NCBI GenBank assembly: GCA_002245135.1
Contig: NGBS01000025.1
Coordinates: 1-64,000, forward strand
Length of the DNA stretch: 64,000 nt
Source: Proteromonas lacertae
Taxonomy: Eukaryota
Reading direction: 5' to 3'
Both the position numbers and the translations under genes were made by a program. Below are positions 1 to 44,287 of the stretch, one piece after another. Position 1 is the first letter of the stretch; every line of letters begins with the position of its first letter. The notes beneath the pieces are model-generated. The model was not told the origin of the DNA, did not search any database, and saw only the letters and a list, made by a program, of their open reading frames with translations.

Positions 1-1482
1 TATAATTATATAGGATTGATGACCAAGCAATTAAACTTACTACATCTCAGCGTTACAATAATACCTGTTACAAAGAAGTAAATGAAAAAATGAAAAGAAA
101 AGCTGATGAATTATATGAATTATAAAGTTTATTATTATTATTTAATAGATGAATCCTCAATCAAAGAAAAGACTATTAGATCCTGATTATAAGTAACAAT
201 TACATGAAATAGTTCATAGGCCAAAGTTAAATGCAGTCTATGGAACTATAGCTATAGGAGCAATTGATATTAAATTAGATTCATCATCACCATTAGAAGA
301 AAGTCGATTAGAATATGTTAAATCTGTTAGAAATAAAATTGGAACAATGCAGTTGGATATTATAGATGTAAGATTTATATTGGATTTATATACTTATGGA
401 AGTCAATTTGATCTATTATTAGAGAATGATGAAGGTTGAGGTACTATATATAACAACTAAAAATAGGGATATTTATATAATTAAGTCGGATAGTAGGTAT
501 TATACAACGTATCAGACATTAGTAAAAGGTATAAAGTATATTCATGTCATTGACTCATCTAGCAAAGGTAATTATAAAACAGATTTAGAGAAACTCAGAA
601 TTAAAGTTGGTAAATATAAAGATCAATTCAGGTTATTAGGAGATTTGTTTAAAGAATATATAGATACATTAATCAATACCAATTCATGTTTATTGAACTT
701 GGCATTTTTAAATCATATTGTTCAAAAATATCAACATCATCAATTACTTATGAAGAAGAACAAGAAAGCCATGGTTTAAGCTTTGTAAAAAAGATAAGAA
801 AGTATTTCAGTATGATGATAAGATTGTTTGTTACAAAGGTAAAGAAAGGGCTGGAAACATCAGTAAATGTGAAAAATTAATATGTGATATGAATACTAAT
901 TATGAGTTAAATACAGACGAGTTCACACTTCTACTACATTTCATCAACAATGACAATAGTCATGTTATTGATCCATTGGTACTATATCAGAGTGAAGCTC
1001 CCAATCACCCCATTCATCATAGTGGCACTTATTTCATTCCAGTATGCAGAGAACATCATTGGACAGTATGGGAGGTGGAATATGTAAAGAATGAATCCAT
1101 TACATGTTATATCCATGATTCAATGAAAGAATATACTCACGACTCTCAAGATAGAAGGTATCTATACTCTGATATTACATCATTATTTGACACAGAAAAA
1201 ATCGATATCTCTTATAAATGTAGTAAAATAATACCATTAGATTATGAGTTAAAGAACTTAAAACAAAAAGGTGATAAGAGTTGCAGTTATTTTGCATTGT
1301 TCTTTTTAGGTATAAGAAAGATGAATATGGAAATAGAAGATGTGGAACATATAGAATCTTTCAATATATCGTACTTTATAATGGATTTAAAAATGGTTTT
1401 AGCATCATTGGATAATAATGATAAAGCAAAGTTATATTGGTATAAAAAGCATAAACCATCATTCTATAGATTCAAATGCTAA
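1..1482 (+). pseudogene. Decayed gene ending in an intact Ulp1/SENP-like (clan CE) cysteine protease domain (open frame 754-1482); probably transposon-associated
   Basis: ORF 889-1482 has IPVCREHHWTV..YIHDSM..LKQKGDKSCSYFALFF (His-Asp-Gln-Cys order of C48 proteases). The frame is open back to a TGA at 751-753. Upstream coding-like sequence has in-frame stops and frame changes. Confidence 0.6.
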
Positions 1483-3058: not shown

Positions 3059-3779
3059 ATGAAAGATTACATAATAATATTTTCTATTATTTTCGTTACT
3101 ATCTAATAAGTATAACAGAATGATTTTAGTAATTTCTTCATGTAATAATAATAAAAAGCTAAATATTGATATTTCATTACTATTTTATAAAGTAGCTATT
3201 TTGTATTGTAATGAAAGTACAAAGCATATAGATTCATATGAAGGTGGCATGATGCTAGATTTTATAATAAACCAATATGACATTAATAGTAATAATAAAT
3301 ACATTTTTTTGCATGATCATGTTAAGTCATGGCATTACCCACAAAATATATATAATCGACTAAACTATCTTAAGAATACAAATTACTTAGAAGGAACAGC
3401 ATTTGGAGGTATCTATTGTGTATATATGCAATTTGGATGTAATAACTCATATGATAGAGATATATACATTAAACAAGCTTACGAAATTGATCAATATATG
3501 AGATACCATAACTATTTAAACTTATCAATCCAAATATTATCTCTAAATAAATATATATTTCCTTGTTGTACGACATTTGTAGTTGATAAAATGAAAATAA
3601 CAGCTTATCCAAGAGAATTATATATAAATATAAGGAAAGGATTAAAAAATTATGTTATTCAATATGGTAAAAATAAATTTTCAGCTATCTATATGGAATA
3701 TTTATGGGTTATTTTATTTGGAGTATTAGATGTATCTTATCCTCCTGATTGTAACATAAATACATTTATTCTTAAATAA
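3059..3779 (+). CDS. DUF3431-family protein (putative glycan-active enzyme); signal peptide appears frameshifted (ORF 3120-3779)
   Basis: Motifs YEGGMMLDFIINQYD, IFLHDHVKSWH, FPCCTTFVV, YPRELY and MEYLWVILFG match DUF3431. Removing one T in the run at 3080-3083 gives MKDYIIIFLLFSLLSNKYNR in frame with the ORF. Confidence 0.7.
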
Positions 3780-3847
3780 ATTGATAATAATAATAAAATA
3801 ATCTATAGATATAAGTAATTTCTAACATTATGATTATTAATAAAGTT

Positions 3848-5635
3848 CTATTTATGATCTATTTTTAACATAATATAATAGCTACATTTATCATTATACT
3901 TATATATACTATTATAATAAAAATATCGTGATATTATTTTTTCTATTCGTTTTTTGAGAATTATTAAATAGTTTATGCTAAAGTGATTATTGTCAGCATA
4001 AATTGGTTGATTATTATAATAAAAATAGCATTTCTTTTTATTTATAATTCTATCATCCCAAAACTTTACATTCTCTATTTTTTTGCAATTTAGTTTAACA
4101 TATGGCTTTGGTAATATACAAGTAGAATTTAACTGATTATAACAATCTTCTTTGTTTGGTTTTAAACAAGAATTAGGATCTGTTAAATGCCTGGGATTAT
4201 CATCACTAAGTAATACTTTGTTACACATTAAAGTGATATTATATATGGTATTATACATATTAGAAAGCTCAATTTGCTCATCAATATAATTTCCAATAAC
4301 ACAAAGACTAAAATTATGACTTTTTATAATAATTGATAAATCACTTGTTTTTATTATATTATTATATGCATGTCTATGAATATAAATATGAAGTAACTGA
4401 TATTGATATTTATATTTACCATGTAATAATGCAATTATATACTGTTGAATATGTGAATCACCAATAAACAACAAAGATGATTTATATATTTTTGAATTAT
4501 TATTCAAAAGGCAATAATTAAAAAGATGAAATCTAAGTTTGTTTAGTAGATCAGCTGTAGTAATATGTTTTACGCTCTTTAATTTTATTTTTGATTTATA
4601 ATCTAAAACAGTTATTAATTTAAATGATAATATTGTCGAACTTAGCGCTAATAAATATACTGATGAGGTATTAAGAATAAAATATCCTTTATAAAATTGT
4701 AATTCAATATAATTATGTAATAGAATAACAGTAAATGTCATTAAAATAATATAATTTGTGAATGAGTTAGTGACTATTTTTAATAGAGGATAATGAATAA
4801 GATAAATTGTATATGAGGTATTTCCAATAATGCACAGCATATAATTCACTAGTATACTGTTACTATTATTAGATATTATTATTATTAAACTTGAAAATAT
4901 AGGAAGACAAGCATTATAGCTAGGGTAAGATAATTTATCATTGTAAAAAAATGACATCAAAATCAATAAAATAATTGAAATATCAGGATTTATTATCACC
5001 TTATAAATATTCGTAATTGGAACAAATTTCATTAAAGCAGATAATAAAAATTCCCATGAACGACTTGATAGAAAGAAATATCCTTTATGTTTGTCTTTAA
5101 AGCCATAATTGACGCTTATTCCTATTGAAATAAATGACGATATAATATATAACATAAAAATGTAATTTTGTAATATCCAAATAATAAATGGTGAAATTAA
5201 ATAAAATTGTTCTTCTAATGACAATGACCAGTAATGTAAAAGAGGACTATCATTTAATCCATTATGAAAGTAATCTATTTTATTAAAATAGAAATAATAA
5301 TTCGCACATACAACAAGACAAGCTATAGCATCATATTTGTAATAACTAAAATTAGTTAAATCATATTTATATGAATAAAATGTAACTAGCAGAATTGTAA
5401 AAAATGAAGCTGGATATAATCTTTTTATTCGATCAGCATAGAATTTAATTAAAAAATTGGAACCTTTATCTTTAATCCTTTTTTCCACTGATTCACAGAC
5501 TAAATAGCCGGATATAGAAAAGAATATATCAACACCTATAAATCCTCCTGTGATTTTACTTGGAAACAAATGATAAAAAAGCACAAATAATACAGCAATT
5601 CCTCGCAATCCTTGAATATCATATCTATGTTTCAT
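3848..5635 (-). CDS. OafA/YrhL-type O-acyltransferase (Acyltransferase_3 membrane domain + SGNH domain), intronless
   Basis: RYDIQGLRGIAVL, GGFIGVDIFFSISGYL, RIKRLYP, PLLHYWSLSLEEQFYL; SGNH motifs IGDSH and DNNH; first ATG at 5635. Confidence 0.92.
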   Translation of the reverse strand: MKHRYDIQGLRGIAVLFVLFYHLFPSKITGGFIGVDIFFSISGYLVCESVEKRIKDKGSNFLIKFYADRIKRLYPASFFTILLVTFYSYKYDLTNFSYYKYDAIACLVVCANYYFYFNKIDYFHNGLNDSPLLHYWSLSLEEQFYLISPFIIWILQNYIFMLYIISSFISIGISVNYGFKDKHKGYFFLSSRSWEFLLSALMKFVPITNIYKVIINPDISIILLILMSFFYNDKLSYPSYNACLPIFSSLIIIISNNSNSILVNYMLCIIGNTSYTIYLIHYPLLKIVTNSFTNYIILMTFTVILLHNYIELQFYKGYFILNTSSVYLLALSSTILSFKLITVLDYKSKIKLKSVKHITTADLLNKLRFHLFNYCLLNNNSKIYKSSLLFIGDSHIQQYIIALLHGKYKYQYQLLHIYIHRHAYNNIIKTSDLSIIIKSHNFSLCVIGNYIDEQIELSNMYNTIYNITLMCNKVLLSDDNPRHLTDPNSCLKPNKEDCYNQLNSTCILPKPYVKLNCKKIENVKFWDDRIINKKKCYFYYNNQPIYADNNHFSINYLIILKKRIEKIISRYFYYNSIYKYNDKCSYYIMLKIDHK

Positions 5636-5853
5636 TCCTGAACTTAGATGTCTTCTCCTTCTATCAGAAGTGTTCGTTAACACAGAAGAATCTTAAAGTG
5701 ACTTTCAATTTTGAACTTCGCAAGGAATACTTTAATTTAAACTAAGCAATCTATAGTATAAAATCAAATTACAAGAACAGGTTTATATTTTGTTTATCTA
5801 CACGACTTTATGATTAGAAAGACATACTACAAAACAAGTCAGCTAATAGTTGC

Positions 5854-5914
5854 TAGGGTCACTATCGGTCAGTATAGTTTTCAAAACCTACAACAGATAG
5901 GTTTTACTGACCTA
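5854..5914. repeat. Possible tiny hAT-related relic
   Basis: TAGGGTCA...TGACCTA ends, with CGGTCA, AAAACCTA and TAGGTTTT motifs shared with the 6884-8044 element; no TSD. Confidence 0.3.
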
Positions 5915-5964
5915 AGATAATTATATATTTCAATCTCTTCCATTTATATTACTTTGAGATATTT

Positions 5965-6847
5965 TCAAGGAAGTTTTGATTTAACAATAATATTGTCTAC
6001 TTTATTTATTTTGCATTTTATTTTTTCGATAACATCATAACCTAGTATTGATAAATGTTTATACAGTTTTTCTATTTCAAACTTACCATTGTCATTTACA
6101 TTACCACATGATGCCTCTATATATATATACTCAGAACGATGAGATTTAAAGAAATTACCTCCTCCTTTTAATAAATCATATTCACCACCTTCTACATCTA
6201 TTTTGGTCATAGATATATTATATGGAATAATGTCAATAAAATCATCCAATTTCATTACACGAATTGTTTGATTATAATCAGGAAAGCTATAATACATAGA
6301 AGATGCTCCCCAATTATTCTTTAATATATATATATATAATTTGATTTTTTTCTTCTTTTCCTAATGCATAAGGATAAATTATTATGTGTTTATTAAAGAG
6401 TGGATTGGTAAAAGTTGTGACAGTAAATGGAAATAAATTATTTGGTAAAGGTTCAAATGCTATTACTTTCACTCCTACTTGAGCAAATAGAAAAGAACAT
6501 GATCCAATATTAGCTCCTAAATCAAGAAAGATACCTCTTCTTGTGCTAGAATTCCATAAATCAAATATTTTTTGACATTCATCCCATCTTCCATATTTCT
6601 TTATATGATTTGATATTATATCATTACTTCTTACATATTGAAGAAATGAAATATTTCGATATTTTGTTTTTGCAAAATAATAATATTGCTCATTTATTAT
6701 TGAAGGGGGAATTATTGATTTTAGTTTTTCTATTTTTAACTGTAATTTCTTTTTAAATCTGTAAATAAAATAGAAATATAATAAGCATGAAAGATATATT
6801 AAAAAGTTGAAGTACTGTATATTCTTAAACTTGAGTATAAAGAATGG
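5965..6847 (-). pseudogene. FkbM-family SAM methyltransferase with N-terminal signal anchor; frameshifted at an (AT)7 tract and lacking an in-frame ATG
   Basis: The upstream frame gives FLDLGANIGSCS, VIAFEPLP and YPYALG. The downstream frame gives NNWGASS, MKLDDF and KIDVEGGEYDLLKG. The frames differ by 1 nt across the A-run/(AT)7 at 6324-6351. Confidence 0.85.
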
Positions 6848-6883
6848 TTATTGTTGATAGGAGATATATTAGATATTATTAAA

Positions 6884-8044
6884 CAGGGTTGTATAAATAG
6901 GTAACCTATAGGTTTTAGGTAAAACCTATAATCTAGCTTTGACCGTTGGTCGGTCAAACCTCGAGTATTATTTTGTTAAAATCTATTTTAATTACATACT
7001 GAGTAACATTTGTTTTATACAAACTATCATACTATATAAAATATTATTTCTGCTTATTGTTTTACTTTAGTTACTATAGTTGTGACTAAGATTGGTTGAA
7101 TTTGTATAAATATCTATACTAATATATTAAAATTCATCTACAAACTACTCAATAGTGATATTTAACATATTTATAAACAACTTATTATTTTGATGATTAA
7201 TTTATATTGATTACTATCTCTAAAAAACAAATATTAATGTAATTATAATAATAAATCTCTATTTCTGAATATTAATGATTTGTCTTCAATTAGTCTCTTA
7301 CTTTCTCAGTTTCTGAAAATAAATAAGCATTATAAAAATCTCTTAGAGGTATAATATATCCTAGTTTGAAGCAAAACCTTCTAAATTCTGGCGAGTCTAA
7401 TATTGTGGTACTGACTGCCTTGAAGGTTATGAATTTACATAGATCTTTGTTGACAGAATCTGAATTCACTTTGGCTTTTACCATATGTAATAATCTGAAT
7501 ATATTATTTTAATCACGTTTTCCAATACATTTTGAAGTAGTTAAAATGTTACTTCTCTAACATACAGCAATTGAATAAAATCACAACTCTTTTGATGCGA
7601 TAGGGGGTAATGTGATATCCCTATAGTTTCATATATTATAAATTCTTATAAATATTGAGTAATTATACATTTAAATGATCTAAATCTTAAAAAATAAAGA
7701 TTAACTTAGTCAAACCATCAAGCTTGATGTTTTTTTCTTTTATTTTTTTTATTCTATAATTAATTTAATATTATGTTAATTATATGTTATTGTGATTCAT
7801 CATTGAGAAATAGATCAAAATAATAGTAATATAAAAAGTGCATCGACCGACGGTCAAATTTGATATTTGAAAGATGATGTATTAAAAATTAATTTTGTAT
7901 ATATGGTTAGATTATATGCTTGTTAACTCATGTTCAATAGGAGGTCAACTAATAGTTAGTATAAGGAAGGTAAAGGTCAAGCTAAAGATATAGGTTTTGA
8001 CCTATAGGTAAACCAATATTTTTTGACCGAAAAATACAACACTG
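6884..8044 (-). mobile_element. Non-autonomous hAT DNA transposon (1161 bp) with transposase relic
   Basis: TIRs CAGGGTTGTAT / ATACAACACTG (10/11 match). 8-bp TSD TTATTAAA at 6876-6883 and 8045-8052. Subterminal TGACCG and AAAACCTATA motifs. Relic ORF 7290-7484 (LCKFI..ILDSPEFRRFCFKLGYIIP) resembles hAT transposase. Confidence 0.92.
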
Positions 8045-8121
8045 TTATTAAAATAACTAAATTAATACTCTACTTTGTTATTATTTTTTATAGAAGTAAT
8101 GGTTATATATTAATTCTATAA

Positions 8122-8937
8122 TTATTTTATCCAGTAAATTGCTTCGTAATATTTGTCTTTCCCTGGATGTTCATATTCATATATAATATCGCTATGTATA
8201 TTTTTTTTAACTCTAAATTCATCTACTGCTTTCTTGCATCCAGAAAAATATCCGTAATCATCAAATTCTATAATTCCGTTTTTATTCAATCTATCATATA
8301 AGTTTTCTAATAAAAACTTAGTATTTATATAATTATCAGCATCTAATCTAATATATGATAATTTTGGTATAGTAGCTTTAGGAATTGTATTTTCGAATAA
8401 TCCTGCAATAAAATGTACTCCTGTGCTTAGATTATATACTTTAAATAGTTGTTTCACTTTTTCAACAGAATTTAATCTAAGTCTATCTGATTCTGTTCCT
8501 TTAATTAGTTTTATTTCTTTTTGATCAGTTATAATAGTATTATTTGGAAATCCTGAAAATGTATCAAAAAGCCATACATCTTTATCATTAATTCCATTTG
8601 CTTTTAATATGCCTTTTGCATATAACATACCTCCACCTCTCCAATTACCAGCCTCAAGTATATCTCCTTCTATGTTATTATTAATTATTCTTTCTGTAAT
8701 TGTTCTAATGTTTTTAAATCTTAAATAAGATAGTACAGTAAACTCATTATTCTTATAGAAATTATTAAAAGGAGAATTTTTTCCAACTATTGAAAACTCG
8801 AGATATAATACTTCTCGTTGAATTTTTTCAATATTCATTTCTTTTTTTATCTTTTGAATATTATTTTGCTTATAATAGGAAAGTAAAAATAAAAATAAAA
8901 TTATAATTAAAAGAAATTTAATGATAAAATAAAACAT
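8122..8937 (-). CDS. TylF/MycF/NovP-family sugar O-methyltransferase with N-terminal signal anchor, intronless
   Basis: GDILEAGNWRGGG, WLFDTFSGFP, GLFENTIP, IRLDADNY, GIIEFDDYG..GCKKAVDEFR; hydrophobic N-terminus. Confidence 0.9.
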   Translation of the reverse strand: MFYFIIKFLLIIILFLFLLSYYKQNNIQKIKKEMNIEKIQREVLYLEFSIVGKNSPFNNFYKNNEFTVLSYLRFKNIRTITERIINNNIEGDILEAGNWRGGGMLYAKGILKANGINDKDVWLFDTFSGFPNNTIITDQKEIKLIKGTESDRLRLNSVEKVKQLFKVYNLSTGVHFIAGLFENTIPKATIPKLSYIRLDADNYINTKFLLENLYDRLNKNGIIEFDDYGYFSGCKKAVDEFRVKKNIHSDIIYEYEHPGKDKYYEAIYWIK

Positions 8938-9142: not shown

Positions 9143-12100
9143 TTAAATCAAACTCATTATTATTATAACTGTCAATATCATGAATATATCACCAATTGTA
9201 TTAGATTTATCTTCCTTATGATCTTTCTCAGAATTTTCATTTCGATCTTTTTGACTTTGAGGAGAAGTAGAAGGAAGTGATTCTATCACTTTTTCATATT
9301 CATTTTCAATTTCAATGATTTTTCGAACTTCATATGTAAACTCAGAATCAATAATCTTGTCATCATTATTGACTTTATAGGCATTGATTCCTCCTTCATA
9401 TCTTAAAGCAACAGTTAATGATTGTTCGATTGAATTTCCACTTCCACAACTTCCACTACTTATTGAAGATCCACTTGTTAATGTTGTTCTTATTCCATTC
9501 TTACTTCGACTTAATCTATATTCTTTATAACAAATACCACTTTCAATATAAACTATTTTATCCTTTCCATAATATATTGTTATATTCAACTTAGATCTAT
9601 CAATTATACTATCTTCTTCATCTAATTCAATCACACTAATCATTTGATTATTTCGAACTGTTCCTATATCTTCTACATGCAAGAATTTATCTACATCAGC
9701 TATTCCATTCATCATTATATTTGCACCATCAGCACTATTCACTAATCGACCAATTTCCACTTTATTACCAACATATCGACTTGACATTTGATTTATTAAT
9801 TCAGTCATTTTATCTTCACAGTTTTGTTTCAACCATTTGAATGACATAAATTCAGGTAAATTGTTCAATTTACAGATATTTTCTATATAATTTCGATTAG
9901 CATTGTTATTCATATATCCACTGTAATCTTCATCTACACCAGCTGTATTGTAGATTGTATATCGAGATTCTTTATTCACACTTTCAACAAATTTTACTAT
10001 CTTCACTGTTAATGGTTTTCTTAATAAAGTATACTCATATACTAATGCTTCTTTTGTTGCAGATAAAGATTCTAAATCTACTTCAGTCATCCATTTACCT
10101 ATTGCTCCTTGACTATCTGGAATGGGTAAATAATCACCAGGTGTAAATCCAGCTTCTTCTAATAATGCTTTATTTGGTTTTATTGTATATACTTTATCAG
10201 TATTTACAAATATATAATCATCATAAATGGTTCTTTGGATAGTTGGTGTTGTATTATCATCTCCTTCTTTTGAAGATGTTGTAGTTGTAGTTGATTCTGG
10301 TATTGTTTTTGTATCATCTTCTTTGGTTATTTCTTTTCTACCTACTGGTAATGCAATATAACCACTTTCTTTTTGTCCTACTAACATTGATACTTTGGAA
10401 CATGTGTCAAATACTTCATTCTTTATTGATTTACAATTTGAATAAATCCATTCGAAATTTAATTCTTTTTCTTCACTTGAACAACCATATTTATTGAATA
10501 AGGATTTCACATAATCATTTACTACAATTTTACTTTCGACATAATTCTCTGTTCCACTTTCATAGATTGAATATTTTCCATCTATTGAGCTTTTCTTTGA
10601 AGTTGTACAGAATAATGTTGATTCTAATTTCACACTTCCATCTAAATTATAAACTACTCTCTTCTTTCCTACCATATAGTCAGTTAAATAACTTGTTAAA
10701 TCATATCTTTCACCTGTTTCTCTATCTTTCAAATTCTTTTCTTCTAATTTACAACCATTTCCTTCAGGTATTACACTTGATTCGATTAACATTGATTTTG
10801 TCACATTTAATACACTATCAACTATCATTGGATGAGTTTCACAACCTTCAATAATAGTATTATTTTCTTTACAATTTATATAAACAGTTCCATTATGAGG
10901 TTTAGCTAAGGATTTAGAATAATAGATTCCATTCATTTCACCTACAAATCTTGCTACAAATGGATCAACCATCTTTTCAATTGATTCTCTACAGTTAACT
11001 TGTAACCATCGGAATGAAGCAAATTCGGGTAATAATGGACAATTCTTATAGTTTTCTTTAAAGTAAATTCGATTTGCTTCTCCTTCATATCCACTATAAT
11101 CATAAATCATATTTATTAAATCATTTGCAGTTGGATTTTGAGTATCTTTCATCTTATACCATGCAAATTTACTACAACTTCCATCATAATTTTCATATCC
11201 ACATTTAACATCTTTATTTATTCTTTCAGATGGAATTAAGATCTTTACTGTTGTTGCTTGTCTTTTATTCAAGTATATATATTGAGTATAATCCTTTGTT
11301 ATATGTAATGTGATAATACTTCCTACATTCTGATTATCATTCCAACTACTACTACCTCCTTCATTTTCATCTAATGGAATTGGAGCATAATCACTTTCTT
11401 CATAATATTGAAGATCTTCTTTCATTTTGCTTTTATCTACCAATTTATAATCAATATCTGTTTCAATTAATTCATTTTCACCATATTTATGAGCTACAAC
11501 TGCATCATATGATCGAATTGATAATTTCTTTGGAATATTATTCAATATATTGTCATCTATATTTATCATTAATGAAGAGTGAGATTGGCAGTTTTCTTTT
11601 ATCCATTTATATGGTAATACAGTTTCATAGATTGGAGGAATTTCGGCACATTCTTTCAACATTTCCTTCAAATTTTTAGTTATAAAGACTCCTGAATCTA
11701 CATCATTCAATTTACCAATTCTATACTGAGTATAATCAATTAGATTATTTGTTTCTACATCATATTTTACTCTACTTCTTATTCCATCTTTCGTTTCAAC
11801 TACAAACAAACTTAAATCACCCAAATAACCATCTCTTTCACCAACTTTTACACTGATCACTTTATCTTCTCTTATAGAATGACTTTTCATATTCATTTTT
11901 ATATCAATATCTTTAATCAAACCCACTGTCATTATATAATCAGTATTTATGATTGGATTACCTTGTTCATCAAATGAAGATACTATATGATATGTTTCAT
12001 TCATTATATTCTTCGTTATATTAATTGATGTTTCAGGATGTAAAACTTTCATATCTTCTATTGATTCTTTTTTCACATCTTCAGAACAGTGAGTGTTTAT

Positions 12101-13843
12101 CCATTTAAACGAAATAAATTCACTTTCACATCGACATTCTGGTTTTGAGTCTTTCTTAAAGTAATTCACATTTGCATCACTACTACAATCATATCCACTG
12201 TAATCATCATCAATTGAATCTTCTAATATATAACAACTATGTTGTTTTTCATCATTTCGATTTAAAACTCTTCGAATTAATTTTGCTTCAAGTTTGGTTT
12301 TATTATTCTTTATTATATATTCATTAGCTGTATTAGATAAATACATTATTTCAGTCAAGTCTTTATTATCTTTCATTGGATATGGTTTTACACTAATTAC
12401 ACCATCTGTTGGTAAAATTGAGCTATAATCTTGATCTGCAAAACATGGCAATATTGATCCTTCTTTAACTGTATAATATACATCAGTATTGATTAATCCA
12501 ACTTGATAATATTTACCATCATAGCTACTAGATAAACTTAAATTCTTATCTTCGAATTGATGTGCTTGTAATGATGTAAATCTTCTAAAGGCAAAACTTG
12601 CTTCATATATATTATTATCACTTGTTTTTGTTAAATAACCTGGAATTTTAATATCATTATCATTTAATCTTAAGCTATAATGTGGACAATTTTTGCTAAA
12701 CCAAATGAATGAGATATATTCATCATTATTTTTACTAATATCACATTCACTACCACTTACATTATTCTTTAAGTATTCATCATTCAATATACCAGAATGC
12801 ATTAAACTAAAACCTGCAGTTGTATCAATAGTATAATTTGTATAATCATCTTTCGTATCACTATTTCCAACAGTTGTTGAACTTCCTTTATATATGTATC
12901 TATAAGTCAATTCACCTTCTTTTACAATATGAGCTGATGAACAGTTAGATAGTATAAAGTCATCTGTTACTATTGAAAAACTGGTTGTTGGATGAGTTTT
13001 TACATTTAATATTGGATATTGATCTTCAATTTTTCCTACTTTTACCAATTTTCTTTCTAAATAATACTCTACTTCTTCTTTAGTAGGAGCTTTACTTAAA
13101 ATATAAAAGTTATTAACATCACCACTTATTGAAGAAACTAATAATCCTGCTTCCATTAATTTCGCTGTTTCTGTGGCATTTATAGCTAGTAATACACTAT
13201 CATAACTGACATTACAGTGAGCATATAACCAGTTTAATGAGGCAAATTCAGGTAAATCAGAACAATTGTAATAATTCTTCATATAATTATTATTCAAATC
13301 ATTTCCTTCTAATCCTGTATAATCTGGATCATATTTGCCACCAACACTTTTACTTCTCCAATACTTTGAATCTACAGGTTTATGTGTAATACTACTATAG
13401 GAATTTGTTCCTTCAGACTCAGAAGTCTTTGTAATCCAATACACAATGGTCAATTCTAAACCTTGAGCTTTACTTACAGGTTTTGTAATTTCTTTGTGAG
13501 TATATTTCACTTTCAATGAATTACAACTAAGCCACACCTCTTCAGTTCTACCAGTTAATGTACAGTTCACTTCAGAAGCATCAATAAGACTACAGTTCTC
13601 ACCAGATTTCAGCAAATTCCAAATACCGTATACTACGGACTCTTCATTAACACTACCATATTTTGTTGAAGTTTCTACAGCTAAATTTCTTTCTTTGCTG
13701 GTTCTTTCAACATTATTCTTAATAACACCTTCCTTGAGTTTTTCATCTGCAGCTACATGACCATTACAAAGTGCAATGACTATAGAATATTACAAATTAT
13801 TTATTATACCCAACAGCAATGCAATAAATTCAAAACCTCTCAT
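9143..13843 (-). CDS. Large repeat-containing cell-surface protein (~1556 aa), signal peptide plus hydrophobic C-terminus (GPI/TM-like)
   Basis: Exon 1 13843-13810, 30-nt intron 13809-13780, giving MRGFEFIALLLVIALCNG. Seven copies of a C..(F/Y/L)xW...(N/H)C module. C-terminus IGDIFMILTVIIIMSLI. Confidence 0.85.
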
Positions 13844-13994: not shown

Positions 13995-16900
13995 TTAAAC
14001 AATTAAACTCCAAACCATCAAAGCTCTATCATTACCTCCAGTCGAAATAACATATCTATCATCACAACTAAATCTAACCATCGGAACATGGCTAGAATGA
14101 CCAATTCCTTCAAAATACTGATGATCTTTTGTAAGTACTGGATATCTATACAGTCTGACTTTACCAAAATCATCGCCACTAACTAGCAATTCACCACTGT
14201 GACTTCTATCACAGTAATTAATATCTGTACCATCTGAAGTATTAGCCCAAATACCTTGCACAGGCCAGCCTAATACACACGATTGAGTATACCATTTCAC
14301 ATCTTTCAATGAACTTGGTGTATTGATATGTTTTCCTTTCATATCGTAGAATAACAACTCATAATCACCATAAGTAACTTGTAAATATTTACTATCCACT
14401 GAAAAATCAAAATGTGATATATAACTATGACCAGCTTTACAAGTAGCAACACATTTTTGATATGAGTCAGACTGATTGTATATATACACCCTAGTATCAT
14501 GTGTACCAACTGCTAAATATTGTCCATTCGGTGAAAACTTCACATCACTGACATGTGACTTAGATATTTCTAAATTTTGACTAATCACACAGGATTTAAT
14601 ATCACTCTCAATATTTGATTTATTAGTATCGATTTGACTTAATTTCTTAAAATCATAAATAATAAAGCCACCTAAATTCTCATTATCAGTTCCTTTGGTA
14701 CTACCACTCCTCGTTCCACCCATCCTTCCACCTAAACCAACACATAATAATTTACCATCTACAGAATAATCAACAGCTCTAGCCATTCGAGGTAATTTCA
14801 CAATTCCTGTCATTGCTCTCTTGCTAATACTCCACATTCTCAGTGAGTTATCATCACCTACACTGATGATTTTATTACTATCTTTAACAGCTACTGTACA
14901 ACCCCATAATTCATCTTTACAATGTCCAGCTGCTAATCTTTCAATTTTACCTGTTGTCTTATTATCAACATCTATTTCTAATTCTAATATATCACTACCC
15001 ATTGTACCAATTAGTAATTTAGATTCATCATCACTGAAACATAGTGAAGCCAAACCATAATTCAAACAGGTAATATGATTCTCACATATATCAGATAATG
15101 TAATGGAATAAATATCTTTCATATTTCCATCCCAAATAATTATTTTACCTGATTTATCACCTGTTATTACACCATTACTGTATTTATAGATTGCATGAGC
15201 ACCAGCTTTATGATTTTTAATCACTTTATTACATGAATTGCCACTGAATAAATAAAGTGGACCTTTAGAAGTACCACATACCATTGTTGTCTCATTCAAA
15301 GAAGCTGCACAAACTAAAGTTGTAATTGGAGCACTTTTGAACAAAGCTCTTTTCTTTGTAACGGATGAAGCATTCCAGAAATTTCCATGTTTTACACCAC
15401 CACTCATAAATGTTCCATCATTAATCCATTCTACAAATAGCGTATTATTACCATCACCTTTATCACTACCTATTAATTTCACTTTTGTCCAATTATCATT
15501 GGATTTACCATATAATGCAACAGAATGATTACCATCTTGACCAACGGTTGCTAATTTCTTACCATCTGGACTGAAGGATAGTGCTAAAATACCTTTCTTA
15601 TGATATCCTTTGATTGTTGTACATAATTCACCAGTTGAACTATCCCATATATTAATAAAAGGCTTAGGACCAAGCTCACCAGTAGCAACATAGGATAATG
15701 TTGGATCAATACATAGACAAGTAATATCATCTTGATGATCTAAATTGAAGATTTGTGGTGCTTTTGGTGGTTGAATTATACCAACTGCAGCTACATGATA
15801 GACTATATTGCCAGTATTAGTATATCTTAAATTATTACGACTATTCTGAGCTGCATATCCAAATGCAGTGTTTAACTCCAATCTTTCACGAGGTAATGCT
15901 GGATTAACTGGTGGTGGTTTACTGGGTGCAAAAATTGCACCTAACCATGGTTTAACTGCCATGAATTCATCTCCACTGGATGGTATTTGGAATGTTTCTT
16001 TACTACTTACTTCTTTTGTTCTTTCTACGAGTAAACCATTATCATCATCTTCATCTCCACCATCATCATCTAAACTCATTAACAATTGTTCACCTGTCAT
16101 TTGTTCAGTACCATTTCGTTCAAACGACCAAACGATTGTACATCGATCATTACCACCTGTTGTTACTAAATATCCATAATTCTCTCTTGATCGAGGATTA
16201 TTACTATCTCTAATTTGAAATGGATCAAATTTTACATTTTGTACAAAACTACTATGTCCTGTACCTTGTACAAAATTAGATTTCTTCGTTACACATGGAT
16301 AATTAAACAATTTAACCAATCCAAAATCATCAGATGTAGCTAACAAACCTGTTTGATTATCTCTATCTAAGCTATTCACATCAGTTCCATCACTACATTC
16401 TGGCCATATTCCTTGAACCGACCAACCTAATACACAAGTTTGGCTTGACCATTCTGTATTTTTCATTGAAGAACTAGCCGTTATCTGTTTACCACTTGAA
16501 ACATCCCAAAATAATAATTCATAAGCACCACAAGTTGATTGTAAATATTTACCATTTGTTGAGAAATCAAAATGAGTAATATAACTAGAATGTCCACTTA
16601 ATTTCTTAAACAATGTTGGATTATCTCTACTAAAATTATATATATAAATGAAATCATCATGCGAGCCAACAGCAAACTTATCTCCTTTTGGTGTAAATTT
16701 AATATCACTAATCCATGCCTTAGCATCTTGTCTTTTATTCTTATTCCATAACCATTTCTTCTTCTCTTTATTATAAGTAATTACAACTATCCCACCTTCT
16801 CCTCTTACACTTCCTTTACCTACTCTTCCACCTAAACCAGCTACTAATGCATCTCCATTTGGATGATAACAGATTGCTCTGGACATACAATCTAATTGAA

Positions 16901-19900
16901 CTAAATCTTTTTGTCTAAATATATCCAAGTTCCAGAATCTTAGTGTTTGATCATCACCTGCTGTACAGCATTCATCCCATTTCATTGGATTCATTGCTAA
17001 TCCCCATAATTCATCAGCACAATGACCAACAACTAGTGGACCTTCTACTTCATAATTCTTTGATTTTATACCTGTTAATTCTAATACTTCACTACCTTTT
17101 GTACCAATCAATATTTTATTTTCATCTGAATTGTAACAGATACTTCTAATATCACTACTTTGTAAAACAATATTCTTCTTTTTACATAATTCATCTAAGA
17201 TAATAACTTCTTTTTTATTGTTATTTGTATCATATCTTATAATTCTTCCACCAGGATTACTCTTATTTCCAGCAACACCACATAATAAATCATTTTTACC
17301 ACTATATAAACAGTAAACAGCACCCATTTTCAATGAAACAATCTTTGTCAAATTCCTACCAGTGAATATATATAAACTACCATCATTACATCCAACAACA
17401 TGATTGCCACTGTTACTGCAATATTCAATAGATATAAATGTCTGTTGTTTACCTTTACTACCTAATATACCTCTTCTGGATGATATATTTTGACCTTGAA
17501 ATTCCCAAAACTTTATATGTTTAACACCACATTGAGCTACTACATTATTATCATCCCAACATATATCTAACACTTTATTAACATCACCTTTACTTTGAGA
17601 TTTTATCTTTGCTTTTTGCCAATCATAGATAGCAATTGAATGATTATCATCTTGACCAATAGAAGCTAATAAATCACCTTTCTTATTGAATGCAATTAAT
17701 ATAACAGCTCTCTTATGATAATTGGTTAATTCTTTAATCATTTCACCATTTTCAGCATCCCATATCACTATCTTTGGTTTAGCACCTAATTGACCTGTTG
17801 CTACAACTTTTAATTCAGGATGAATAGCTAATGAAACTATATCATCATTATGATTTTGATTGTAATATTGTTTATTCTCTTTTACATGGAAACTTATTCC
17901 TAATGCAGCAGTATGATATATTAAACTCTCATCATAAGAATATCTCAAGTTATTTCTCACATCTTGAGCTTGATAACCAAATGCCCATCTAATATCAATA
18001 GATACATCAGGTGCTGATGGATTAACTGGTGCATGGTTATCTGGTTCATGAATTGCACCTAACCACGGTTTAACTGCCAAGAATTCATCTCCACCATCTA
18101 ATCTATCTTCAAATGGATGAGATAATTCAGTCATATGATCTAAACCATCATCTTCATTATCTTCCACTATATTATTAAATGCATTAGGATCTCGATCATC
18201 ACTCTCATATCTCCATTGAAATACACTTCTATCATTACCACCTGTTGACCATACATACTGTTTAGATTTGAAATATGGTGTAAATCTTACATTAGTGACA
18301 TGACTGGAATGACCAATAAAACTAGAAAATGGACTATTTTTATTTACACATGGATATCTAAATAGTTTAACTAATCCAAAATCATCAGCTGTTACTAATA
18401 CATCTCCTTTGGGTGATAAATCTAAGCTATTCACATCAGTTCCATCACTACATTTTGGCCAAATACCTTGAACTCCCCAACCTAATACACAAGTTTGGCT
18501 TGACCACTTTGTGTCCTTCATACTAGAGCTGGCAGTTATTTGTTTACCATTGTTGGTACTCCAAAATAATAATTCATAAGCACCACAATTTGATTGTAAA
18601 TAACGACTATCTTTAGAGAAATCAATATGAGTGATATAACTAGAATGACCTTTACATCTTGTATTATATTGTAAACCAGGCCATTTATAGAGATAAATAT
18701 AATTATCATGAGAACCAACAGCTATTATTGAACCACAGGGTGAAAATTTAACATCACTAATCCACTGTTTAGAATCATGTCGAGTCTTTGTAATTTTCAA
18801 TGATTTTTCATTAATTGCAATTACCATTCCTTCATATTTATCATTTGTTTTTTTACCTACTCTTCCACCTAATCCACAGATAATATTCTTACCATCTATT
18901 GAATAAGCGCATGCTCTAGACATGGAGGGTAATACTGCTCCTCTAATCTGACTGTAAGTTAAACAATCGAATATTCTAACAGTATGATCATCACCAACTG
19001 TACAACATTCATTTGGTTTGGTTGGATTGATTGCCAAACCCCACAATTCATCATTGTAATGACCTGAGACTATTTTATTTATATATTCAGATGGAATTTT
19101 ATCTCTTTCAGCATTATTATTTATTCTATTGTATTGTATAACATATATTTCACTAAAGATTGTACCAACCAATAATCTATCACCACTTATACACAAGCTT
19201 TTAACTTGAACTTTAGAAGGTGGTACAACAATATTATCTTTCTCAATTAGACAAGTACAGAATTGAGATGTATTTAAATCAATTTGTTTCTTCATTTTCA
19301 TATTCATATCCCAAATAATAATCAAACCATCTTTACCACCAGATAATATCTCAGAGTTATTATTACAATATAATGTATGAACTGTTCCAGTATGTTTTTT
19401 ATATGATTTCTGCGCTGATCGACCCATCCATTGGTATATTTCACCTTTCGCTGTTCCTGTTAAAAATGAATCACTGGATAGTGGTAAAATACACGAAATT
19501 GTTTGTAACTGACATTTACCAAATAAACCATTTTGATTTTTCAATACTTTACCATTTAATGTCCAATATTTTAAGTGTTTTACACCACAAGTGACGAGAG
19601 TTGTATCGCTTAAGAATTTACATTCTAAAGTCTTTTCTTTTGAACCAGTTGCTGTAGAAAACTTCGTAAATGTATTCTTTTGGAAATTCAACTTGTGGAT
19701 AGCGATTGAATGATTATCATCTTGTCCAACACTTGCTAAATAATCACCTGATGGACTAAATGCTACAAATAATATAGCTCTTTGATGAAATCCACCAATA
19801 TCCATTAATATTGTACCTGGATCATTAACATTCCATATTATCACCTTTGGATTCTTTCCAATTTGACCTGTTGCTACATATTCACCAGATGGATGGATTG

Positions 19901-21070
19901 CTAAACATAATACATCATCATCATGACCAAAGTTGAATGACTGCTTCTTTTCATTGATATTTAAACATATACCTACTCCAGCACTGTGATAGACTATCTT
20001 ATTAGGATCTTTGGTGAAATATGCATTTTGATGACTATTCTGAGCAGCATAACCATAAATCCACTCTAAATTCAAAGAAGCATCTGGTGGAGAATTGATA
20101 ATTGGAGGTGGTTTACTCGGTGCATGAATTGCACCTTTCCAAGGTTTAACTGCCATGAATTCATCTCCACCAACAAACTGATCATTAAATTCTGGTTTAC
20201 TCTCTGGAATTTCTTCATTTTCTATCTCTTCACTGATTTGAGAGTATTTGGTTGTACAATTCAAAAACTGTTTGAAGTACTTATTTCCAAATAAGAAATA
20301 ATTAGTAAAGTCCTTGTGACTGACACTCTTAATCCAATTAGGTTTTCCATGTAATGTTGGATCAGAAGCAATTTCACCAAGTAAGTGAAAACAACTATCT
20401 AAAATAGTAGCATCTGATGCTATATCACGCTTATTCAATGAATTCATGTCATCTACAGTGTTTTCATCTGATTGTCTATTGAATTAATATAATTATAATA
20501 ATTTATACTGTAAACTAAGCACATGATGGTACACTTTATCAATACCAGACAATAATGATTTCATTGATAATAAGAACTCTTCTCTTGATAATTGACGGCT
20601 TTCTGTAGTGTTTGAATTGACATTGAAGTGGAATGCATCAAATAAATCTTCAATCTTGATGGAATCATCTAAATCTGCAAATAAGATGAAGAAATAAAGT
20701 AATTCATAAGCATCAAATTTGTTGGGATCTTGTTGCTATAACAAAATGTATAAAATCAATAATAAAATACATAGGGTGTTGAAAATGCTGGTAAAAAGTT
20801 CTTTACTCTTTCTCTAATATCTTCTGGATCATAATTCAAGGCTTTATCAAACCACAATACAACATCATCCTCTGTTACGAAGGTAGCATCTTTGTCTTCG
20901 TTGTTCACTAAACTCTGGTAATAGTTTCTGAAGATGTAAGTCAATTGCTGTTGATTAAAACCAGTAAATGTTGTAATGTCTGAAGTGAGGAATGTCTGTC
21001 TACCATTATCACTGTTCGTACCATTTACATCTTTCTCGTTGTAAACTATGCTTTTTAAAATCTCGTCCAT
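13995..21070 (-). CDS. Echinoderm microtubule-associated protein-like (EML5/6-type, three HELP+WD40 TAPE units) with degenerate EF-hand-like N-terminus, ~2335 aa
   Basis: Three repeats of GDEF(M/L)AVKPW.GAI, WxSQ(T/S)CVLGW.VQGIW, DGTD(V/I)N and GHSS(H/F)V. Introns 20770-20736 and 20508-20476 join the upstream ORFs in frame. Confidence 0.9.
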
Positions 21071-25544: not shown

Positions 25545-25835
25545 ATAGTAATTAAAATAGATTCTTTAAATTATATTATATATATTTGTTTTGTTTTGTT
25601 TTATATAATTATTAATTGTTTTGTTGTGTGTTTTGAGGTGAAAATAAAATGAAAGAGTAAATAATAATTGTTAAAAGAAATGAAAATAATAGTTGATATG
25701 TCAAAAGAAAAATTTTTCTATTGGATTAATTAAATAGAAAATATGATGTAGAAATATTACATTTTTTATTATATAACATTTATCTCACCATAATATAACA
25801 TTTCAATAATAAGGAATTTTAATAAAACATATTAG

Positions 25836-26486
25836 TTATATCTGATCATACTTCAATACAGGTTTCATTATCTTTTCATTCATATTCTTTCTTTTATTAA
25901 TACTTCGAAAGTGAATTGTCATTCCAATTATCAATCCAACTACTGCAACAGATGCTACAACAGCATATATAATTAAAATCACATTATCATTACTCTTTAT
26001 TCTTTCATTTCTTGATTCATCACCATCTGCTAAGACACTAATTCGAATCTGTTGATTATTTGTAATATTTCCACTGATAGAAGTAATAGTGTATATCCTA
26101 TTACTTCTTTCTTTTGGAGAACCAGAGATCTTACCATTAATTACGTTAATTGACATTCCATATGGTAATTCTGGAGTTACTGTAATAGTATCAATATTGT
26201 CATGGATAATTGGAATTATTTCTCCCATTCTACCATTAATTAACACATTCTCATTATAGTCATAAAGTAATGGAATTCTATCACAATCATGAACTTCCAT
26301 CCATAATGCTATTCCATTCTTTTCAATACATGTTCTATATTTATACATATGATCACCACAGTATATTACTGTTGTATGATTGACATGCGTTGCAGGGTAT
26401 TCAGCTTCAGCATTACAGAATAATTGTTGAACATTATCAGCAGTTGATAATGTTAAAAAGATGAAGAATAAGAAAATATATTTCAT
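25836..26486 (-). CDS. Type I membrane protein with He_PIG-like Ig domain (copy 1, 216 aa)
   Basis: Signal peptide MKYIFLFFIFLTLSTA; TVTPELPYGMSINVINGKISGSP..YTITS (He_PIG pattern); TM helix VILIIYAVVASVAVVGLIIGM. Confidence 0.85.
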   Translation of the reverse strand: MKYIFLFFIFLTLSTADNVQQLFCNAEAEYPATHVNHTTVIYCGDHMYKYRTCIEKNGIALWMEVHDCDRIPLLYDYNENVLINGRMGEIIPIIHDNIDTITVTPELPYGMSINVINGKISGSPKERSNRIYTITSISGNITNNQQIRISVLADGDESRNERIKSNDNVILIIYAVVASVAVVGLIIGMTIHFRSINKRKNMNEKIMKPVLKYDQI

Positions 26487-27260
26487 TTGTATTTTGTGGG
26501 ACAATGTTTGTGAATAAAATATCTATTTGGTGCTTTTGTGTTGTAAAAATGTCTCTCACATATGTTTAACTTTATATTATATTAATTAACACATCTATCT
26601 ATCACATATAAAACTGAATTACAGAAAGGACAGATATTTTCATTGAATGTAGTTTTTCATAATTTTAACACTGATTATTTACACTGTTACTATTATAAGG
26701 ATATTAAACTGTTATATGACAAAACTACCTATTTATAATTACACAGGTTTACAAAAAAATAATGTTAACTATATACAAGCATACAAAAAATATCAATATT
26801 ATATATATATAGAATGAAATTGCTTACTACAGCATGAAATATATAACTTTAAAATATATTTAAGCTTGATTTCTATTCAAGCTTTTCATTTGAAATTCAA
26901 ATAAAAGGAGTAAGGATGAAGTTTACTCTTATTACAACCATGAAAAAGTAAGTTTTATAGAGAATGGATTTATCAATAGCTTAAATGAACTAGGATATTA
27001 AAAGCTAAAAATATATGTGTGGTTTTGTTATATAACAGTTTAATATCCTTATAATAGTAACAGTGTAAATAATCAGTGTTAAAATTATGAAAAACTACAT
27101 TCAATGAAAATATCTGTCCTTTCTGTAATTCAGTTTTATATGTGATAGATAGATGTGTTAATTAATATAATATAAAGTTAAACATATGTGAGAGACATTT
27201 TTACAACACAAAAGCACCAAATAGATATTTTATTCACAAACATTGTCCCACAAAATACAA

Positions 27261-27911
27261 ATGAAATATATTTTCTTATTCTTCATCTTTTTAACATTAT
27301 CAACTGCTGATAATGTTCAACAATTATTCTGTAATGCTGAAGCTGAATACCCTGCAACGCATGTCAATCATACAACAGTAATATACTGTGGTGATCATAT
27401 GTATAAATATAGAACATGTATTGAAAAGAATGGAATAGCATTATGGATGGAAGTTCATGATTGTGATAGAATTCCATTACTTTATGACTATAATGAGAAT
27501 GTGTTAATTAATGGTAGAATGGGAGAAATAATTCCAATTATCCATGACAATATTGATACTATTACAGTAACTCCAGAATTACCATATGGAATGTCAATTA
27601 ACGTAATTAATGGTAAGATCTCTGGTTCTCCAAAAGAAAGAAGTAATAGGATATACACTATTACTTCTATCAGTGGAAATATTACAAATAATCAACAGAT
27701 TCGAATTAGTGTCTTAGCAGATGGTGATGAATCAAGAAATGAAAGAATAAAGAGTAATGATAATGTGATTTTAATTATATATGCTGTTGTAGCATCTGTT
27801 GCAGTAGTTGGATTGATAATTGGAATGACAATTCACTTTCGAAGTATTAATAAAAGAAAGAATATGAATGAAAAGATAATGAAACCTGTATTGAAGTATG
27901 ATCAGATATAA
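27261..27911 (+). CDS. Type I membrane protein with He_PIG-like Ig domain (copy 2, identical)
   Basis: Reverse-complement copy of 25836-26486 with identical translation. Confidence 0.85.
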   Translation: MKYIFLFFIFLTLSTADNVQQLFCNAEAEYPATHVNHTTVIYCGDHMYKYRTCIEKNGIALWMEVHDCDRIPLLYDYNENVLINGRMGEIIPIIHDNIDTITVTPELPYGMSINVINGKISGSPKERSNRIYTITSISGNITNNQQIRISVLADGDESRNERIKSNDNVILIIYAVVASVAVVGLIIGMTIHFRSINKRKNMNEKIMKPVLKYDQI

Positions 27912-28209
27912 CTAATATGTTTTATTAAAATTCCTTATTATTGAAATGTTATATTATGGTGAGATAAATGTTATATAATAAAAAATGTAATATTTCTACA
28001 TCATATTTTCTATTTAATTAATCCAATAGAAAAATTTTTCTTTTGACATATCAACTTTAATAGATGTTGTAGCGAAATGGTTAATAAAATCAACTGAACA
28101 ATCTAGAATTCCATTTTTCGCATGTGGTTTATATTTTGTGTTTATTTTAATAAACAAAAATATATTCGTTTCATTTAAAACGAACATATTTTTTCAATAT
28201 ATTTTTAAA

Positions 28210-40577: not shown

Positions 40578-40759
40578 TTATTGTTTTTAAATATTTACTA
40601 TTTTAATGTAGTTTTTTTTAAGAAAAATGAAAATCAATCAAATCAAGGCTTGATCATTTTCATTCTTCATTTCATTTTTTTATATCAATGACAAAAAATT
40701 AAAATTAAATAATATTCACATAAAGTAAATTATAACTATATAATCTAATTAGATTATAC

Positions 40760-41872
40760 TCAATTAATTAATTGATATAACTTTGCATTATCAAACACAC
40801 AGATGTTATTCATTTTGCATTTATTACCATATCTGTCTAGATAATACATATCATTATATCTAGATATGAAGCTGGGAATACTATCACCAACAAACGATAA
40901 TTCTTCTCTTTCAGCTGATACATTTATATCACTAACATGTCTCATATTCATATTTATTGCATCATATTGTCTATAAGTCTGTTCCGGTTTTGAATTGAAA
41001 AAATCCACAATTTCTTCTATACAACTCTTTAATGGAACTATTTTTCTGATTTCTCTATTATCATCTTTATATTTTATTACTATATTATCATCAGATTTAT
41101 AATTTGGCAGTTTAGATAAATAATTGGGTAAATCTTTATCAATTTTGTTTATTATGTCTTCAATTCCTCTTTTTGTAAATGGAAAGTATTTGGCTAGTAA
41201 GGGAGATAGGATAATTGAACTATTTGATGTGATTTTTAAGGATAATGGTGGAGGTATAGTCAGAAGTTTCATTGAAGATTTATTTTCTTTTTCTTTATTC
41301 TTTCTTTGCTGATTTCGAGATGAAGTAAGAGCAAATGGAGGTGAACTTATTCTACATACACATTTATAACAATTTATATTTGAATCATAGATCATTCCAA
41401 AAACATTAAAACAATATTGAGATTCTTTCTTTGGCCATTTTAAATTAAACATCCATGCTTTATATCTTTCATTTAATACGAATTCATTTCGACTATCCTA
41501 TTATATGATTAAATAACAACATTAATTATACATTGGACTTTCCAAAATAAAATGGTGCTTCCATTCTGTCATTCTCATCAAAATAAGTAATAGGCATTAT
41601 TGTACCTACATCAATTTCATTTGGACTTAAATAATATGAAAAATGACCACAAACAAATAATGTATCGTTGCAATTATTATATACTTTTATTCTAATACTT
41701 TGTCCACAAAATCCCGTGCTCTAAAAATCATATTAACGAATTATACTCTATGTTTGAAATTTATATGGTCTGGAAAGCATAAAATATGCTTATTTTGTGT
41801 AGTTTTATTATTTCTTCTATAAGAGCTCTTCCAATTAATGCTTGGGTCAAAGAATAAACTGACGTAGCTCAT
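40760..41872 (-). CDS. Hypothetical protein, paralog A (3 exons)
   Basis: Mirror of 42949-44166 with the same two introns; C-terminal region diverged and 35 aa shorter. Confidence 0.8.
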
Positions 41873-41898
41873 TTTAGCAGTGTTTTTTGATTATCAAC

Positions 41899-44166: not shown

Positions 44167-44287
44167 ATGTAATTTAATTTTATGAAATAATATTTTACAT
44201 TTATATATCTGTAGTATAACAATTGGTTTACTTTTTGATGTGATAAAATGAAATGAAGAATGAAAAATTCAAGCTCTGGTTTGAATT

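Follow-up and report, generated by a model that had tools for sequence, protein, structure and literature searches.

How did four unrelated genes for glycan decoration come to lie together in a protist genome, and do they move and work as a set? We addressed this question in Proteromonas lacertae, using positions 1 to 64,000 of contig NGBS01000025.1 of assembly GCA_002245135.1 (64,000 nucleotides (nt), 25.4% GC, no N; hereafter the window). The original prediction held that positions 3059-8937 (island 1) contain four consecutive intronless genes between transposon relics, and that this group and a second one around an acyltransferase gene at 55242 (island 2) arose by repeated, modular assembly of acyltransferase, methyltransferase and glycosyltransferase cassettes. 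We found that island 1 is a real, non-random and partly decayed cluster of predicted glycan-tailoring genes. It probably represents old, domesticated families of the secretory pathway that are clustered in transposon-rich patches and turn over there by birth and death.

Genes of island 1 and their condition

All four families expected in island 1 were recovered with Pfam: DUF3431, Acyl_transf_3 (AT3) joined to SGNH, FkbM, and TylF. The four genes are intronless, as had been proposed, and several neighboring core genes have candidate GT..AG introns, mostly of 22-44 nt (a candidate was found at 20 of 23 junctions and none at the other three). The features of island 1 and its left flank are listed here.

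197-1482, plus strand: degraded open reading frame (ORF) fragments, the last one at 754-1482
2176-2693: foldback element, similar to a miniature inverted-repeat transposable element (MITE), with 188-nt arms that are 94% complementary
3059-3779, plus strand: DUF3431 gene (Pfam PF11913 domain at 3078-3779, 52.5 bits, cut-off 25; Atlas 0.97)
3848-5635, minus strand: AT3-SGNH acyltransferase of the OafA/OafB type, intact, 595 amino acids (Pfam PF01757 plus SGNH)
5965-6820 (5' end approximate), minus strand: FkbM methyltransferase, a pseudogene as assembled
6884-8044: non-autonomous hAT-like element, 1,161 nt, with short terminal inverted repeats and an 8-bp target-site duplication
8122-8937, minus strand: TylF/NovP-type sugar O-methyltransferase, intact, 271 amino acids (Pfam PF05711, 157.4 bits)

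The genes are neither consecutive nor a working set. The hAT-like element separates FkbM from TylF, FkbM is frameshifted and has no in-frame ATG, and the ATG of the DUF3431 gene at 3059 is out of frame. Judged from the sequence, two genes are intact (the OafA-like acyltransferase and TylF), FkbM is broken, and the DUF3431 gene is probably damaged.

Among solved structures, TylF matched NovP (E = 7.4e-34) and MycF (E = 1.4e-30; PDB 2wk1 and 4x7u for the pair), and its S-adenosylmethionine (SAM)-binding motif aligns with both. Acidic DxD and DD motifs, whose aspartates presumably have metal-binding and catalytic roles, also align with NovP and MycF and are present in all seven members of the TylF clade described below. 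Bacterial TylF, NovP and MycF enzymes are soluble and tailor antibiotics. In contrast, the window TylF has an N-terminal anchor and a conserved sequon, both lacking in distant homologs. The anchor, defined as an N-terminal 17-residue hydrophobic stretch with a hydropathy threshold of 2.0, scored 3.05 and was present in 6/6 close TylF clusters, compared to 0/114 distant and 0/78 viral homologs. The sequon, at N169, was found in six of the seven clade members and in 0/114 distant homologs, in counts that are inflated by Asn-rich composition. The closest relatives of TylF form six clusters that are 57-65% identical to it, after which identity drops to 42% or less. Two quick trees were built, one of 121 rows and one of 142 rows; the latter included 57 of the 114 distant rows and 78 of the 80 viral rows. 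In both, TylF and the six clusters formed one clade of seven on a long stem (Shimodaira-Hasegawa-like approximate likelihood ratio test, SH-aLRT, 100) that contained neither viral nor bacterial rows.

The acyltransferase gave a clear match to Acyl_transf_3 (78.4 bits, cut-off 31) and a match to SGNH just under the cut-off (26.1 bits, E = 8.4e-6, cut-off 27); it had no sequence match in PDB. Its AT3 part contains R11-X10-H22, GGFIGVD (30-36), FFxISG (38-43) and R69xxR72, and its SGNH part contains GDS at 392 and DxxH at 548. The available part of PMC7448272 reports these motifs as conserved or essential in OafA. The window enzymes thus share with OafA/OafB of Salmonella and with OatA the fused AT3-SGNH architecture, the R-X10-H, GG-F-x-GVD, FFxISG and RxxR motifs, and the Ser/Asp/His triad (available parts of PMC7448272 and PMC9558356), but they belong to a eukaryotic host and fall within a 17-member AT-rich clade. 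In the loop that would correspond to the region of OafA S112, Ala precedes the conserved Asn in both window copies and in one bacterial homolog aligned with them. Eukaryotic AT3 proteins have barely been characterized; the examples given in the accessible text of PMC9558356 are from C. elegans and Drosophila, with targets described as unknown.

FkbM was detected in two Pfam pieces (PF05050; C-terminal half 37.8 bits, cut-off 22.7; N-terminal half 18.8 bits), and the two halves matched TIGR01444 with E = 7.7e-9 and 2.2e-6, each under the cut-off. Its profile had no sequence match in PDB. The frameshift lies in an (AT)7 run at 6324-6337. There are 43 nt between two motifs in the window, four bases more than the 39 nt (13 residues) that separate the same motifs in 9/9 full-length relatives. 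An intron at the break was considered and rejected, as the coding strand has no GT at this place and the relatives lack an extra segment. The stretch 6700-6890 contains a single ATG, which is out of frame, and the hAT-like element lies approximately 60 nt upstream. There were ten FkbM relatives in total, 55-67% identical and all found only in Logan; eight of the ten have an N-terminal hydrophobic anchor.

The ATG at 3059 opens only 14 codons before a stop and is shifted by one base from the frame of the DUF3431 domain, near a short run of T. An in-frame ATG at 3120 could give a protein of 219 amino acids without the short hydrophobic leader. The DUF3431 profile had no sequence match in PDB, and we modeled the structure with 28 viral relatives from a motif scan (predicted local distance difference test, pLDDT, 67; predicted template modeling score, pTM, 0.72), compared to a pLDDT of only 33 from the single sequence. 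Almost all of the 50 structural matches listed were GT-A enzymes or related nucleotidyltransferases, with Z scores of 5.7-7.8 (none at 8) and root-mean-square deviations of 3.6-5.6 among the matches listed; the best of them were GT-A enzymes, with deviations of approximately 4. With Foldseek, the matches in PDB of the GT-A class reached E = 0.32 at best, and a viral protein annotated as GT-A gave E = 0.0047. Following a strand, at residues 60-65, there is a His-Asp-His that may stand for the DxD metal-binding motif; the viral relatives have HGH or QG there. DUF3431 is therefore a predicted GT-A-fold glycosyltransferase, a lead that is consistent but middling. The glycosyltransferase expected in island 1 is thus not an annotated one, and that part of the proposal holds only through structure prediction for DUF3431.

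The products of these four unrelated, intronless genes likely build and tailor surface glycans in the secretory pathway of this AT-rich protist. The role of the DUF3431 enzyme would be the attachment of a sugar. Following the transmembrane acyl-transfer model in the available part of PMC9558356, the AT3 domain would move an acyl group, probably acetyl provided by acetyl-CoA, through the membrane. On the luminal side the SGNH domain would receive this group and place it on a hydroxyl of a sugar. TylF and FkbM, both anchored in the membrane, would use SAM for the O-methylation of sugar hydroxyls.

Island 2 and the comparison of paralogs

Islands 1 and 2 are approximately 43 kb apart, with genes of the core type (EML, adenylosuccinate synthetase, ARID) in between. 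Island 2 contains the following features.

52510-53409, minus strand: ORF of the GT31 galactosyltransferase family (Pfam 65.5 bits)
55242-57077, plus strand: AT3-SGNH paralog, intact, 611 amino acids (nearest database relative 56% identical)
57586-58395, plus strand: GT2-family gene with N-terminal anchor (Pfam 36.8 bits; hydropathy 2.09)
58431-59453, minus strand: possible GT-B-like gene (sub-threshold Pfam matches only; Glycos_transf_1, E = 0.11)
59593-59826, plus strand: decayed fragment of a third AT3 acyltransferase
59906-60616, plus strand: Methyltransf_24 gene with N-terminal anchor (Pfam 59.8 bits; hydropathy 2.56)
61661-62488, plus strand: anchored protein with weak similarity to DUF3405 (Pfam E = 0.003, below cut-off)

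The N-terminal hydrophobic stretch exceeded the threshold in four of the five single-domain genes of island 2. The GT31 ORF has no in-frame ATG before its hydrophobic N-terminus, and its first in-frame Met is residue 87. The protein at 61661-62488 has Atlas look-alikes at 0.97, one of them with DUF3405 on 14% of its members.

The two acyltransferases are strongly diverged, as predicted (29% identity over 417 columns). We aligned them and built a tree of 54 rows, selected among 267 retrieved proteins and the two window copies. On one side of a branch with support of 100, and of 100/100 after Dayhoff-6 recoding, stood 17 AT-rich rows, both window copies among them. Within this clade of 17 the two copies belong to different subclades, the branching order of which was unresolved. 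The methyltransferases were also found to be of different families, with no significant pairwise similarity among FkbM, TylF and the Methyltransf_24 of island 2 (best E = 1.2). A recent block duplication is thus not the source of the two islands: AT3-SGNH is the sole family that they share, at 29% identity and in different subclades, and their methyltransferases are unrelated.

The fragment at 59593-59826 scored 42.7 bits against the profile of the 17-member clade, compared to 5.3 bits for the best of 300 shuffles of the neighboring intergenic stretch. Over short stretches (approximately 50 residues) it is closer to the island-1 copy (43.6%) than to its own neighbor in island 2 (29.3%). We also considered a continuation of this fragment at 61.1-61.5 kb, split off by insertion of the Methyltransf_24 gene. 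This was rejected, as 66 of 200 shuffles did equally well and the profile scores were negative.

Decay is therefore present in both islands, affecting FkbM and the DUF3431 start in island 1 and the AT3 fragment and the GT31 start in island 2.

Mobile elements, turnover and origin

The placement of island 1 between transposon relics stood on the left side and not on the right. On the left are the foldback element and the degraded ORFs at 197-1482, which are likely the relic of a DNA transposon. The fragment at 754-1482 has a His/Asp/Gln/Cys pattern like that of Ulp1/C48 proteases, a motif linked to transposons; its Pfam match, to ElaD-SseL-like_C, was below the cut-off (E = 0.0056), and it had no PDB match below E = 0.08. 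Self-BLAST of the window revealed related copies of the foldback element at 41891-42310, 54921-55158 and 60659-60952; no target duplication was identified for the copy at 2176-2693. To the right of TylF no repeat was found, and the end of the next gene, which is long and intact, is 205 nt away.

The element at 6884-8044 was assigned to the hAT type by the usual criteria, an 8-bp target duplication and short terminal inverted repeats. Its two ends agree at 10 of 11 nt, and the same 8-mer stands on either side of it; such a pair of identical 8-mers occurs, at that spacing, at 7 of 62,792 positions in the window. A 72-residue fragment within it (7290-7508) had no match to a transposase or any other Pfam family at E = 5. 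A truncated second copy (53603-53907; 91.6% identical over 275 nt) lies 194 nt from the GT31 ORF, and by self-BLAST both the hAT-like and the foldback families are common to the two islands. Because its target duplication is intact, the hAT-like element jumped into a pre-existing island and delivered no gene, and no mobile element was found bracketing an island gene. As a separate observation, both strands of a short stretch at 5845-5915 contain the subterminal motif of the hAT-like element; this stretch separates the acyltransferase from FkbM and is possibly an older transposon relic.

The clustering of glycan genes in the window is greater than expected by chance. When 25 loci were listed by hand, counting the intron-rich region at 32-40.6 kb as one locus, the 11 labeled as glycan genes formed four runs (p = 8.5e-5, 200,000 shuffles); with a stricter labeling of nine glycan loci, p was 0.0037 (200,000 shuffles). 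Since the window was picked for its clustering pattern, these p-values flatter it.

We suggest that the gene families were gained long ago, acquired membrane anchors and expanded, and that they would today be concentrated in patches that tolerate transposons, with copies arising and being lost there, the likely driver being pressure from viruses, predators or host lectins. This reading follows from the old paralogs, the differing gene sets, the decay in both islands and the shared transposon families. Each island would then hold its own partly decayed selection from a single genome-wide toolkit, which likely serves to vary the sugars on the cell surface, and would not be a fixed operon.

Several points weigh against this account. 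The two frameshifts of island 1 lie in simple repeats and the ORFs that served as controls were picked for length, so that assembly error is possible. The secretory assignment is weakened by hydropathies below the threshold of 2.0 for the DUF3431 leader (1.09) and for the anchor of the window FkbM (1.67). The topology of the TylF anchor is not fixed by the sequence, because more basic residues follow the anchor than precede it. The GT-A assignment of DUF3431 relies on Z scores below 8, and Foldseek returned nothing in PDB at E = 0.001. The close AT-rich relatives are taken to be eukaryotic from their composition and anchors only. Finally, according to the accessible portion of PMC10690189 (supplement file 7), free-living Cafeteria has four FkbM, two AT3 and one TylF domains, and a bacterial origin of these families is thus not demonstrated.

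It is unlikely that the islands are co-regulated pathway cassettes, each making one glycan epitope, selected together and swapped or switched like bacterial serotype loci, with the (AT)n run of FkbM as an on/off switch. Predicted glycosyltransferase, acyltransferase and methyltransferase activities from unrelated families are combined in each island, and the clustering in the window speaks for cassettes. The FkbM break lies in a dinucleotide run, two of the seven (AT) runs of at least six units in the window are in the FkbM gene, and phase-variable oafA genes are known in bacteria (available part of PMC9558356). However, a reversible switch would not explain the missing in-frame ATG of FkbM and the transposon just upstream, Tyr-Ile codons readily yield (AT)n runs in a genome that is 75% AT, and the islands differ in gene sets and order, with mixed orientations. 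The proposal of modular assembly therefore held insofar as the islands are not one recent block duplication. Movement or function as cassettes was not supported, given the lack of a bracketing element, the later insertion of the hAT-like element and the damage to half of island 1.

Also improbable, in our estimate, is that the islands are old, stable, syntenic loci, with lesions that reflect mistakes of long-read assembly in simple repeats and with transposons that merely happen to be carried along in an AT-rich genome. The location of both frameshifts would fit, as would the relatives of TylF and FkbM, which are 52-67% identical and intact across six and nine full-length clusters, and the 56% relative of the island-2 acyltransferase. 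In contrast, no break occurs in four long core ORFs that add up to 20,622 nt; the chance that both frameshifts would fall in island 1 is p = 0.028, with ORFs chosen because they are long. The lost ATG and the clearly decayed AT3 fragment are atypical of repeat errors, and the island-1 acyltransferase has no relative above approximately 36% identity.

A bolder proposal would be that a gut-type stramenopile has a bacterial-style serotype system in its secretory pathway. Many small islands would each combine a glycosyltransferase (with DUF3431 as an overlooked GT-A family) with AT3-SGNH acyltransferases and anchored O-methyltransferases and would act as eukaryotic contingency loci, their surface epitopes switched by transposon insertion and slippage of coding (AT)n runs. 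We consider this quite improbable.

The search for a foreign source gave little indication of a recent one. The best bacterial or viral identities were 40% or less for TylF and 38% or less for the acyltransferase, and the best FkbM match among GTDB genomes was 25% identical; for these three genes no close bacterial or viral donor was present among the sequences searched. Viral contigs contained no close relative of TylF or DUF3431 and none of FkbM. Metagenome contigs held no relative above 40% among the best 80 of 536, and annotated phages held no close DUF3431 relative. TylF, FkbM and AT3 occurred together in 0/240 bacterial and viral loci (of the 80 metagenome loci, only 30 are at least 8 kb long), DUF3431 was present in two of 49 TylF-bearing viral records, and no viral hallmark gene was found with Pfam among the window ORFs scanned. 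GC content at third codon positions was 0.12-0.17 in the island genes, within the range of the core genes (0.10-0.22). One viral record has, at 1002-2453, a gene that joins a capsule-type glycosyltransferase with a weakly matching DUF3431 segment, and its neighbor encodes an NAD-dependent sugar epimerase. This record, the intronless genes, the bacterial nature of the named homologs and the mostly viral DUF3431 look-alike clusters in the Atlas (which itself warns that they are no sign of transfer) favor a recently transferred bacterial operon or the relic of an integrated glycosylation cluster of a giant virus or phage, but we judge such an insert very unlikely given the low donor identities, long stems, gained anchors, host-like third-position GC content and lack of a donor locus. 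An ancient transfer of the island gene families is plausible, from trees that held no named eukaryotic homologs, and single genes may derive from an old viral or bacterial source.

Related systems and the surrounding genes

Eukaryotic clusters of unrelated glycan-tailoring genes have been documented mainly for the outlier chromosomes of Mamiellales. On one of these small chromosomes, chromosome 19 of Ostreococcus tauri, glycosyltransferase, FkbM, sugar-modifying and transposon-related genes with few introns are clustered, according to the available parts of PMC5082852 and PMC3491373. The same parts describe paralogs of the outlier chromosome moved to new contexts in modular fashion, and propose a change in surface glycans tied to virus resistance. 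The window is similar in its clustered glycosyltransferase and methyltransferase genes, transposon relics and few introns. It differs in that its islands are patches of 6-10 kb among intron-bearing core genes, not a whole chromosome or a large set-apart region, in the presence of AT3-SGNH and TylF, and in paralogs that are 29% identical, compared to up to 97% in Mamiellales. The link to virus resistance is described for Mamiellales. By analogy, the window may work like the Mamiellales outlier chromosome without being a member of that class, and that chromosome is the closest described system.

The families of island 1 are multi-copy in P. lacertae. InterPro counts in the part of PMC10690189 (supplement file 7) available to us are FkbM 70, TylF 12, DUF3431 7, AT3 6, GT31 59, SGNH 1 and HELP 5. 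The table is limited to counts, and nothing is said on clustering, anchors or origin in that part of the source. In the same table, all eight annotated Blastocystis strains have zero for FkbM, AT3, TylF, DUF3431, SGNH and HELP, and HELP is present in Proteromonas and Cafeteria. The window carries all six, a Proteromonas-type toolkit without counterpart in those eight strains. Taken by themselves, the tiny introns, the low GC content and the duplicated putative Ig-domain gene would point to kinship with Blastocystis, such as a low-GC Blastocystis of tortoises; the HELP motifs of the window and the zero counts weaken that reading, and the gene content agrees best with a Proteromonas-like opalinate. 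In the literature covered, from which some relevant texts on the lineage were missing, neither Blastocystis nor Proteromonas is described as having islands of this kind. If our reading is correct, dispersed small islands would represent bacterial-type surface decoration moved into the eukaryotic secretory pathway, with fast turnover. Island 1 is half decayed and brings no new biochemical principle; it offers tractable eukaryotic AT3 enzymes and a first functional lead for DUF3431.

The core genes of the window are eukaryotic by Pfam and include adenylosuccinate synthetase, an ARID/zf-CW/TAZ protein and an EML protein of 2,150 amino acids.

13995-20447: EML5/6-like gene, intact, with HELP motifs

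The immediate neighbor of TylF, at 9143-13789, is an intronless ORF of approximately 1,550 codons. It is internally repetitive, ends in a region that includes a hydrophobic stretch, had no Pfam match and is a candidate surface protein. Immediately to the left of island 2 (45317-52333) is an ORF of 2,338 codons with PA14 and filamin domains, the product of which is possibly a carbohydrate-binding surface protein, and immediately to the right (62599-64000) is a UDP-sugar pyrophosphorylase-like gene with introns.

There are two large inverted structures between the islands. At 40624-44298 is a foldback with arms of approximately 1.3 kb, which contain two diverged copies of an ORF (no family assigned with Pfam), and a MITE-like element at its center. 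At 25686-28061 is an inverted duplication of 1,056 nt with arms that are 99.5% identical, either a very recent palindromic duplication or an assembly artifact. It gives two identical, head-to-head copies of a single-pass gene of 228 codons with a weak match to a putative Ig domain (He_PIG). The Pfam scores of the putative Ig-domain proteins in the window are sub-threshold; Blastocystis also has putative Ig-domain proteins, according to the available part of PMC3129679.

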